From Escherichia coli (lineage in GTDB: Bacteria; Pseudomonadota; Gammaproteobacteria; Enterobacterales; Enterobacteriaceae): 64,000 nucleotides of DNA. A program made the position numbers and the translations under genes. Under the pieces are notes generated by a model. It had not been told where the DNA came from and made no database searches. It saw only the letters and a list, made by a program, of their open reading frames with translations. The stretch lies in NCBI RefSeq assembly GCF_003790525.1, contig NZ_CP033635.1. One strand, written 5' to 3'. Position 1 is the first letter of the stretch. Each line of letters begins with the position of its first letter. Shown piece by piece: positions 1,906 through 63,533 of this stretch.

Positions 1906-4268
<2,363 letters not shown>

Positions 4269-20746: not shown

Positions 20747-20775
20747 GGATGGTGCTAATTGCACCATCCTCTTTT
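20747..20775 (+). terminator. Rho-independent terminator after add
   Basis: 9-bp stem GGATGGTGC/GCACCATCC, 5-nt loop, then TCTTTT. Confidence 0.55.
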
Positions 20776-21815
20776 CACGCAAGGCACAGCGTCGCGCGAT
20801 GTTTGGCGGATTCGATGCCCTGCTCAATCAACTCCATTACCTGGATTGCCTGACTTGCCGGAACCGGATTTTCACCATCGCCATTTAACGCATCACGAAT
20901 AGCCGCATAGTAAGCCGGATAATTCCCTGGTACTGTCAACAGCGTTTCTTCGACACGTTCCTCACCTTCCACGCGGGTAAGTACGCCATCACGCATATCG
21001 TAGCCCCAGTCTTCCTGCGGCAGACGCTCGCCATTTTTCAGACGTTCTTCCTGTGGATCGAGGCCATATTTCACATAACTGCCTCGGGATCCATGCACGA
21101 TATAACGTGCTGACTCAGCAGCTGCCAGCATGGTACCGTGTAAAATGACTCGCCGCTGCGGATAGGACAAGATGGCGTGGAAATAATCGGTCGACTGCGC
21201 TCCGGGCCGTAACTGTGCCAAATCAACCGTCATGCTGACCGGTAAACCAAATAGCGTAATGGCCTGATCAAGAAGATGCGGTGCTAAATCGTACCAGATA
21301 CCGCTGCCAGGACCGCCCTGTTCACGCCAACGATCGCGCACCTGCGGACGGAAGCGGTCAAAATGAGACTCAAAGTAAGCAACTTCACCCAGTACGCCTT
21401 CCACGAGCAAACCTTTTAGCGTCAGGAAATCGCTATCCCAGCGACGGTTATGGAATACAGACAGCACACGCCCCAGGCTTTTTGCCAGCGCTTCCAGCTC
21501 TCGCGCTTGTGACAGTGTCACGGTAAAGGGTTTATCAACGACCACATGTTTACCCGCCTCAAGCGCCGCTTTGGCTAACGGGAAATGGGTATCGTTGGGT
21601 GTAGGAATGACAATCAGGTCTATGTTGGGATCGTTAAACAGATGCTTCGGCTCAGAGACAACCGCAACCGTTGGCCAGTCGGCTTTTACTTTTGTTTCAT
21701 CGCTGCTGGAGATTACCGCCAGTTCCAGCCCGGGCGTGCCCGCAATCAGGGGCGCATGGAAGGTTTTGCTCGCATAACCATACCCAATCAACCCAACACG
21801 GATGTTGTCGCTCAT
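20775..21815 (-). CDS. ydgJ: Gfo/Idh/MocA-family NAD(P)-dependent oxidoreductase YdgJ
   Basis: 346 aa from MSDNIRVGLIGYGYASKTFH (Rossmann fold); the tracked ORF begins 13 codons upstream at a GTG. Confidence 0.85.
   Translation of the reverse strand: MSDNIRVGLIGYGYASKTFHAPLIAGTPGLELAVISSSDETKVKADWPTVAVVSEPKHLFNDPNIDLIVIPTPNDTHFPLAKAALEAGKHVVVDKPFTVTLSQARELEALAKSLGRVLSVFHNRRWDSDFLTLKGLLVEGVLGEVAYFESHFDRFRPQVRDRWREQGGPGSGIWYDLAPHLLDQAITLFGLPVSMTVDLAQLRPGAQSTDYFHAILSYPQRRVILHGTMLAAAESARYIVHGSRGSYVKYGLDPQEERLKNGERLPQEDWGYDMRDGVLTRVEGEERVEETLLTVPGNYPAYYAAIRDALNGDGENPVPASQAIQVMELIEQGIESAKHRATLCLA
21509..21521. other. matS site (MatP-binding; GTGACAGTGTCAC) within ydgJ
   Basis: Exact match to the 13-bp palindromic matS consensus GTGACRNYGTCAC; the window is in the Ter macrodomain. 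Confidence 0.65.
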
Positions 21816-38672: not shown

Positions 38673-39530
38673 ATGTCAATTAAAACAATTAAGTATTTCT
38701 CAACAATCATTGTAGCGGTAGTTGCGGTTCTTGCCGGATGGTGGCTGTGGAATTATTACATGCAATCTCCGTGGACACGCGACGGGAAAATACGCGCAGA
38801 ACAGGTTTCTATCACCCCTCAGGTGTCGGGACGTATTGTTGAGCTGAATATAAAAGACAACCAGCTGGTTAACGCGGGGGATCTTCTGCTCACGATCGAT
38901 AAAACGCCCTTTAAGATCGCCGAGCTGAACGCACAGGCTCAGCTGGCGAAAGCGCAATCTGACCTCGCAAAAGCCAATAACGAAGCGAATCGTCGTCGTC
39001 ATCTCTCACAAAATTTTATTTCTGCCGAAGAACTCGATACCGCTAACCTCAATGTTAAAGCGATGCAGGCCAGTGTTGATGCCGCACAGGCGACGCTGAA
39101 ACAGGCACAATGGCAACTGGCGCAAACGGAAATTCGCGCCCCGGTGAGTGGATGGGTGACTAACCTCACTACCCGCATCGGCGATTACGCTGACACAGGG
39201 AAACCGCTGTTTGCCCTTGTCGACAGCCACTCGTTTTACGTCATTGGTTATTTTGAAGAAACCAAGTTGCGCCATATCCGCGAAGGTGCACCAGCACAAA
39301 TTACCCTCTATAGTGATAACAAAACGTTACAGGGTCACGTTTCCAGTATCGGTCGGGCGATTTATGATCAGAGCGTTGAAAGTGACTCAAGCCTTATTCC
39401 GGATGTGAAACCTAACGTCCCCTGGGTTCGACTCGCCCAACGCGTTCCCGTCCGCTTTGCGCTGGATAAAGTCCCAGGCGATGTCACGCTGGTGTCGGGC
39501 ACCACCTGTAGCATTGCCGTAGGTCAATAA
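38673..39530 (+). CDS. ydhJ: HlyD-family membrane-fusion (periplasmic adaptor) protein YdhJ
   Basis: 285 aa from [10 protein letters not shown]-terminal anchor, coiled-coil, lipoyl/beta-barrel-like regions; AaeA paralogue. Confidence 0.85.
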
Positions 39531-62277: not shown

Positions 62278-63533
62278 TACGCAGGCTGGAGCGTTGCGCC
62301 AATCCCGTCTTCGTCTGGCTGTAGTTTCAGTGCGTTACACAGAGTTTGCCGACTGGCATCTGTTATCTCAACGTGTATATCACCAGTAACTTCCCCTTTC
62401 ACATTGATGAAGTCAGGTGAAATTTCTTTCGCACTGGTTTGCAGGCAAATCGCTCCCTCTCCGCGCAGGCGTTTCACTTTAAGTTGCACATGCGTTGCCG
62501 CACCAGTGATTAGCCACAGTTTTCCGCCATTGAGATTGATGTTACCAACACTGAAAGTGACACTGTCACCTTTTATCGTACTGCCGTCGAGAATCAATAC
62601 ACCGCCCTGCTGTACAGTAATCGTTGATTGTTGCAGATCTGCGCCATAGCCAATAATCATTGAAGCGCCGTCCAGTAATGCAACACTACCGGTCAGTTCA
62701 ACCGGTGCGCGATCTTCCTCTACGACAAAATTTTCGTCCGCGCTGGTGGGTGACAACAGGATCACTGTCCCACCTTGTATTACCGCATTTTCCAGCGTAC
62801 CGGCATGCACTTCAGCCCGACCACCCACATTAACGGACAGGTTTTGCGTCTTACCGGAACTGTAGAGCTGAAGACCATCCGTCCCCAGACGATAGATGGC
62901 TCCATTCTCAACAATAGTGTCAGAGTCTTCACCACCGAGATTATTCATGGTGCCACCAGCAAGCAACGTATCATTGGCTTTCCCCGCCAGCATAAAAACG
63001 CCGCCCTGATTAATCTCACAATTGCTGGCTTCCCCACCTGGATACACCAACAATTCACCACCTTCATCTACCACGACCGCTGAGGTTGTCCCATTGACCA
63101 ACAGGCCACCCTCTTGATCGAGAATAATTTTTTCCGCGCGATGGCCTTCCAGTACACGCAGGTTACCGCCATTTTCCAGCAACAAACCGCAGGCATAACC
63201 TTTATCAACGCTGAATTCACCTTCGGGATGGCGGCCATTAACCGTAGCGAGCGTAGAGAGACTAATTGCGCCTCCCTCGGACTGAACAATATCTGTGGCA
63301 ATGGCACCGTCGCTGACCGATAGCGTGCCATTGTTGCCGTACTGTGTGCATTTGGCGATCCCACCGGTTGCCACTTTCAACCAGCCAGCCCCCGTGACCA
63401 CGGTATTTTCGGCTCTTCCGCCAGCCTCAACAATTAACTCGCCTTCAGTAAGTTGCGTCGCGCCAATGACCTCGCCGGTCTTAACAATTTGCACGTTCCC
63501 GTCGCTCATCAAGTTTTTCGCATCAGATCCCAT
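62277..63533 (-). CDS. ydhQ: YdhQ: AIDA-like beta-helical repeat protein (autotransporter-passenger-related), uncharacterised
   Basis: 418 aa; repeated Gly-rich motifs about 19 aa long (e.g. GGxLxV/GGxAxN); no obvious N-terminal signal peptide and no C-terminal beta-barrel domain. Confidence 0.8.
   Translation of the reverse strand: MGSDAKNLMSDGNVQIVKTGEVIGATQLTEGELIVEAGGRAENTVVTGAGWLKVATGGIAKCTQYGNNGTLSVSDGAIATDIVQSEGGAISLSTLATVNGRHPEGEFSVDKGYACGLLLENGGNLRVLEGHRAEKIILDQEGGLLVNGTTSAVVVDEGGELLVYPGGEASNCEINQGGVFMLAGKANDTLLAGGTMNNLGGEDSDTIVENGAIYRLGTDGLQLYSSGKTQNLSVNVGGRAEVHAGTLENAVIQGGTVILLSPTSADENFVVEEDRAPVELTGSVALLDGASMIIGYGADLQQSTITVQQGGVLILDGSTIKGDSVTFSVGNINLNGGKLWLITGAATHVQLKVKRLRGEGAICLQTSAKEISPDFINVKGEVTGDIHVEITDASRQTLCNALKLQPDEDGIGATLQPA
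62567..62579. other. matS site (MatP-binding; GTGACACTGTCAC) within ydhQ
   Basis: Exact match to the matS consensus GTGACRNYGTCAC. Confidence 0.65.

Follow-up and report, generated by a model that had tools for sequence, protein, structure and literature searches.

A matS site inside ydgJ of Escherichia coli and the conservation of its synonymous codon positions in enterobacteria

A matS site in the coding sequence of ydgJ

The window analyzed here is a 64-kb stretch of E. coli DNA, which contains the tus gene with a terminator of the TerB type, the ydgJ gene with add on one side and blr/ydgT on the other, and three matS-type sites (Table 1). In reverse complement, the window is 100% identical to the chromosome of E. 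coli SMS-3-5 (NC_010498.1).

Table 1. Coordinates of the features discussed in this study (positions in the window)
Feature	Position	Strand	Basis and remarks
TerB-type Tus-binding terminator AATAAGGATGTTGTAACTAAAGT	1906-1928	+	11 bp upstream of tus start; context, not part of matS
tus	1939-2868		annotation
ydgJ, Gfo/Idh/MocA-family oxidoreductase gene, matS host	20775-21815	-	annotation, translation; Pfam PF01408 and PF02894
matS site GTGACAGTGTCAC, matS19 of the 28-site numbering	21509-21521	.	inside ydgJ
GTTACAGGGTCAC in ydhJ, degenerate matS20	39326-39338	.	2 mismatches to 2008 consensus
GTGACACTGTCAC in ydhQ, matS21 of the 28-site catalogue	62557-62569	.	perfect consensus; catalogue 1745151 bp

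The original prediction had described the 13-mer GTGACAGTGTCAC as an exact match to the matS consensus that is embedded in ydgJ, and had put the number of chance matches in 64 kb at approximately 0.02. Our analysis agrees on all of these points. The sequence at 21509-21521 shows 0 mismatches to the consensus GTGACRNYGTCAC and is contained in the annotated ydgJ CDS (20775-21815, minus strand). When the whole window was subjected to 100 dinucleotide-preserving shuffles, matches to GTGACRNYGTCAC occurred with a mean of 0.02, and two or more matches were found in 0 of the 100 shuffles, compared with two matches observed in the window itself. Read in the direction of ydgJ, the site is GTG ACA CTG TCA C and corresponds to codons 99-103 (V-T-L-S-Q), which come directly after the DKPF motif, where the NAD-binding domain ends. 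No extra sites were detected across the window when one mismatch to GTGACRNYGTCAC was allowed, and a search with two mismatches yielded 8 hits versus 7.1 expected, such relaxed hits being uninformative on their own. Only one of these two-mismatch hits, at 39326, was validated, namely by a catalogue coordinate (see below).

Identity with a catalogued MatP-binding site

The same 13-mer is present in the genome of K-12 MG1655 at 1,704,002-1,704,014. Seba et al. (2024, eLife) defined 28 matS sites from three MatP ChIP-seq experiments (PMC10945525), and Supplementary file 1 of that study lists matS19 at 1704014 bp (PMC10945525). Because the end of the MG1655 13-mer (1,704,014) coincides with this listed position, the ydgJ site can be identified as catalogued matS19. 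This identification is based on exact coordinate matches to the positions tabulated in that supplementary file (PMC10945525), and all three catalogue positions that fall inside the window coincide exactly with matS-type 13-mers. The site had previously been judged most likely a genuine MatP site, though not novel biology, and comparison with the published lists bears out both parts of this judgment: an identical K-12 site is present at 1704014 bp in a catalogue derived from MatP ChIP-seq (PMC10945525), and the ydgJ matS is therefore already known, as matS19. MatP occupancy of the ydgJ site in SMS-3-5 is presumably the same as in K-12.

Binding to the same core has also been measured in vitro. 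Monterroso et al. (2019) used a 19-bp oligonucleotide named "matS19", AAAGTGACACTGTCACCTT, which bound two MatP monomers per DNA with a Kd of 15 +/- 2 nM (PMC6538776). The 13-bp core of this oligonucleotide, GTGACACTGTCAC, and the ydgJ site are reverse complements of each other and thus represent the same core on opposite strands, whereas the flanking bases differ. The oligonucleotide is instead identical over its full 19 bp to the ydhQ site with its flanks (62554-62572), and the ydgJ and ydhQ sites differ from each other in flanking bases and in host gene. The original list of Mercier et al. 2008 reportedly comprised 23 matS sites; if the oligonucleotide name "matS19" was taken from the 2008 numbering, the ydgJ site, as the consensus site preceding the one in ydhQ, would correspond approximately to matS18 of that list.

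Other matS sites in the window

The second perfect match to the consensus, located in ydhQ, was missing from the original prediction. The position listed for matS21 (1745151 bp) is the exact start of this site in MG1655. For the third site, matS20, the coordinate listed is 2769807, which refers to a rearranged strain (PMC10945525, Supplementary file 1). Subtracting the transposed segment of 1,047,890 bp from this value gives 1,721,917, exactly where GTTACAGGGTCAC begins in MG1655, and the offset of 1,047,890 is confirmed by the values in the same table for matS28 (3022276 versus 1974386). A consensus search by itself would overlook this site, which was defined by ChIP-seq. The matS sites in the window are spaced by 17.8 and 23.2 kb, and 3 of the approximately 28 MatP docking sites are found within these 64 kb, each inside a gene.

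Terminus context and presence of MatP

The window had also been placed beside tus/TerB, and both tus and a TerB-type site were indeed found in it, 19.6 kb from the ydgJ matS. The sequence at 1906-1928 differs by one mismatch from what we take to be the TerB sequence. In SMS-3-5 the ydgJ site lies at 1,558,648-1,558,660 and dif at 1,656,736, that is, 98 kb apart. A matP gene (WP_000877166.1) is annotated in the same genome (NC_010498.1, 2,168,657-2,169,109), and matP was detected in 5425 of 5426 complete E. coli genomes. The ydgJ site is thus a consensus sequence in a dif-centered terminus position, in a genome with matP, and with a degree of conservation beyond what coding needs (see below). 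Compared with matS19 of K-12 (PMC10945525), it has the identical 13-mer, host gene, codons and neighbors (add, blr, and cnu/ydgT) and differs only in strain, the SMS-3-5 terminus (dif, tus, the site, and matP) being inverted relative to the K-12 order.

This inversion is large and covers the whole SMS-3-5 terminus region relative to K-12. A segment of at least 1.2 Mb (NC_010498.1, approximately 1.04-2.26 Mb), which reaches from wca/his, via ydgJ, tus, dif, and matP, as far as infA and a tRNA-Ser gene that is presumably serW, shows order and orientation opposite to those in MG1655; the SMS-3-5 record begins at thrL, as does that of MG1655.

Conservation of the site and selection on synonymous positions

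Within E. coli, the 13-mer is retained in at least 5386 of 5426 complete genomes (99.3%). For this count we used a 30-base query centered on the site, with which any megablast seed must include the whole 13-mer. The query matched 4636 of the 5426 genomes, and a version with a substitution that is common in the flank (C to T at position 21504 of the window, 5 bp outside the site) matched 750 further genomes, disjoint from the former. Among the divergent alleles that were sampled, the site was intact in six of six. In one of these six, that of E. coli EPSSH018 (NZ_CP125889.1, 502377-502642), ydgJ is disrupted by ISApl1 at 9 bp from the matS, and the 13-mer is intact.

Beyond E. coli, 80 orthologues of ydgJ with 83-98% protein identity were obtained from one scan of representative genomes, giving 81 sequences together with the window. 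They come from more than 20 enterobacterial genera, including Escherichia, Citrobacter, Salmonella, Enterobacter, Kosakonia, Trabulsiella, Franconibacter, and Buttiauxella. A perfect matS consensus is found at the same codons in 71 of the 81 sequences, and variation among these retained sites (GTGACACTGTCAC in 44, GTGACGTTGTCAC in 26, and GTGACATTGTCAC in one) is confined to the degenerate R and N positions of the consensus. The peptide KPFTVTLSQARE shows no change in 80 of the 81 orthologues, and the synonymous positions are therefore the informative ones. Among 152 fourfold-degenerate ydgJ codons with a conserved amino acid (median major-base frequency 0.54), the third bases of codons 99, 101, and 102 rank 2, 1, and 7 in conservation, respectively. 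Codon 100, which contains the R position, is ACA or ACG in all 81 sequences, whereas ACC and ACT together account for 45% of the Thr codons in the remainder of ydgJ. Codon 102 is TCA in 72 of 81, although TCA is the rarest Ser codon in the rest of the gene (5.5%). Retention of the matS mask at the site amounts to 88%, which ranks first among the 1025 13-mer windows of ydgJ (median 5%, 99th percentile 48%), and the flanking synonymous sites (AAR, CCN, TTY, ACN, CAR, GCN, CGN, and GAR) are freely variable. There is accordingly purifying selection on the DNA sequence itself, in the shape of the matS consensus.

Two other observations were made in the course of this survey. An assembly labeled Chryseobacterium sp. 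18061 (CACSKA010000003.1) contains an enterobacterial ydgJ with 87% protein identity and a perfect matS, and is probably mislabeled or contaminated. Yokenella regensburgei is the only species whose orthologous locus has a second perfect matS (positions 1795 and 2590), the extra site being located downstream of ydgJ, at a distance of approximately 50 bp from its stop codon.

Selection on the DNA sequence could in principle act on something other than MatP binding. The palindrome might serve a hairpin in the ydgJ mRNA or another DNA-binding protein, MatP binding being incidental. The RNA can indeed fold into a 5-bp stem with a 3-nt loop, and TGTGA resembles, by eye, a half-site for CRP. However, with -3.5 kcal/mol the hairpin is weak; it needs no purine at loop position 6, yet A or G is found there in 81 of 81 orthologues; and compensatory stem changes are absent among the 81 orthologues, the lineages that lost the site having broken the stem on one side only. 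On these three grounds the mRNA hairpin was rejected, and a CRP site was rejected since the second half-site is absent. Considering in addition that MatP occupancy is documented at the identical K-12 site, we regard this type of explanation as very improbable. Still harder to maintain, to the point of being almost inconceivable, is that the palindrome arose by chance from the codons of a conserved V-T-L-S-Q peptide and has no role for MatP: although, given the invariance of KPFTVTLSQARE, the protein sequence already determines 9 of the 13 bases completely or almost completely, pure coding coincidence is ruled out by the entry of the identical K-12 site in the MatP ChIP-seq catalogue and by the synonymous-site pattern, in which four positions are constrained exactly as in the matS consensus (including the rare TCA and the purine-only wobble of codon 100) whereas adjacent ones vary freely.

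Loss of the site in some lineages

The ydgJ matS is lost in 10 of the 81 orthologues, mostly from Enterobacter and Lelliottia species whose congeners retain the site, suggesting repeated independent loss. The losses are due to synonymous changes, and one of the ten lineages has also changed Leu to Pro. In lineages without the site, no replacement matS was detected within +/-1.5 kb. Given these losses and the lack of a nearby replacement, a single matS is individually dispensable, which fits the published redundancy of the system, in which nine matS sites suffice for the exclusion of MukBEF (PMC10945525). Taken together, it is quite likely that selection on synonymous sites has kept the ydgJ matS at the same four codons across more than 20 genera, and that the site was nevertheless repeatedly lost in Enterobacter and Lelliottia.

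Discussion

We have very little doubt that the palindrome at 21509-21521 is a functional matS which is bound by MatP and forms one unit of the Ter macrodomain array. This reading is based on its sequence, its position in Ter, the presence of matP in the genome, ChIP-seq occupancy in K-12, in vitro binding of the core, and selection on its synonymous sites. In this reading, a MatP dimer binds the 13-bp palindrome with one monomer per GTGAC half-site, and the ydgJ site is one of about 23-28 matS sites spread through the Ter macrodomain around dif. MatP-bound sites jointly unload the condensin MukBEF and so keep it out of Ter; they also delay the segregation of the two sister termini and, via ZapB, connect Ter with the division ring. 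Several elements of this scheme have been reported previously. MatP has been described to bind matS in Ter, to interact with ZapB, and to delay the segregation of Ter (PMC7394560); displacement or unloading of MukBEF from Ter by MatP has been described in several studies (PMC4738335, PMC8669397, PMC10945525), and MukBEF exclusion is graded by matS number and density (PMC10945525). The ydgJ site alone would presumably make some contribution to this collective function, and any effect of it on ydgJ transcription is likewise a matter of supposition.

Like matS, the Tus/Ter system, SlmA-binding sites, FtsK KOPS, ParB/parS, and the XDS of B. subtilis all involve short motifs whose skewed chromosomal distribution provides regional identity, but they differ from matS in their sequences and binding proteins. 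A Ter site of the Tus/Ter system shares the window with the ydgJ matS. Ter is avoided by SlmA sites but is the only region in which matS sites occur. The XDS of B. subtilis, an SMC-unloading site, has already been compared with matS (PMC10945525).

The ydgJ matS assigns the window to the Ter macrodomain and leaves the current picture of MatP and matS unchanged. What our analysis adds is modest, namely a quantification of synonymous-site selection at this site. It provides a quantified example of how a chromosome-organization signal constrains synonymous codon choice over long evolutionary distances, and the ydgJ matS could be used as a positive control in scans for DNA signals within coding sequences. 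If the site has indeed been held at the same codons across these genera, selection would target particular matS positions besides the overall density of matS in Ter, and chromosome architecture would partly dictate the codon choice of a gene.
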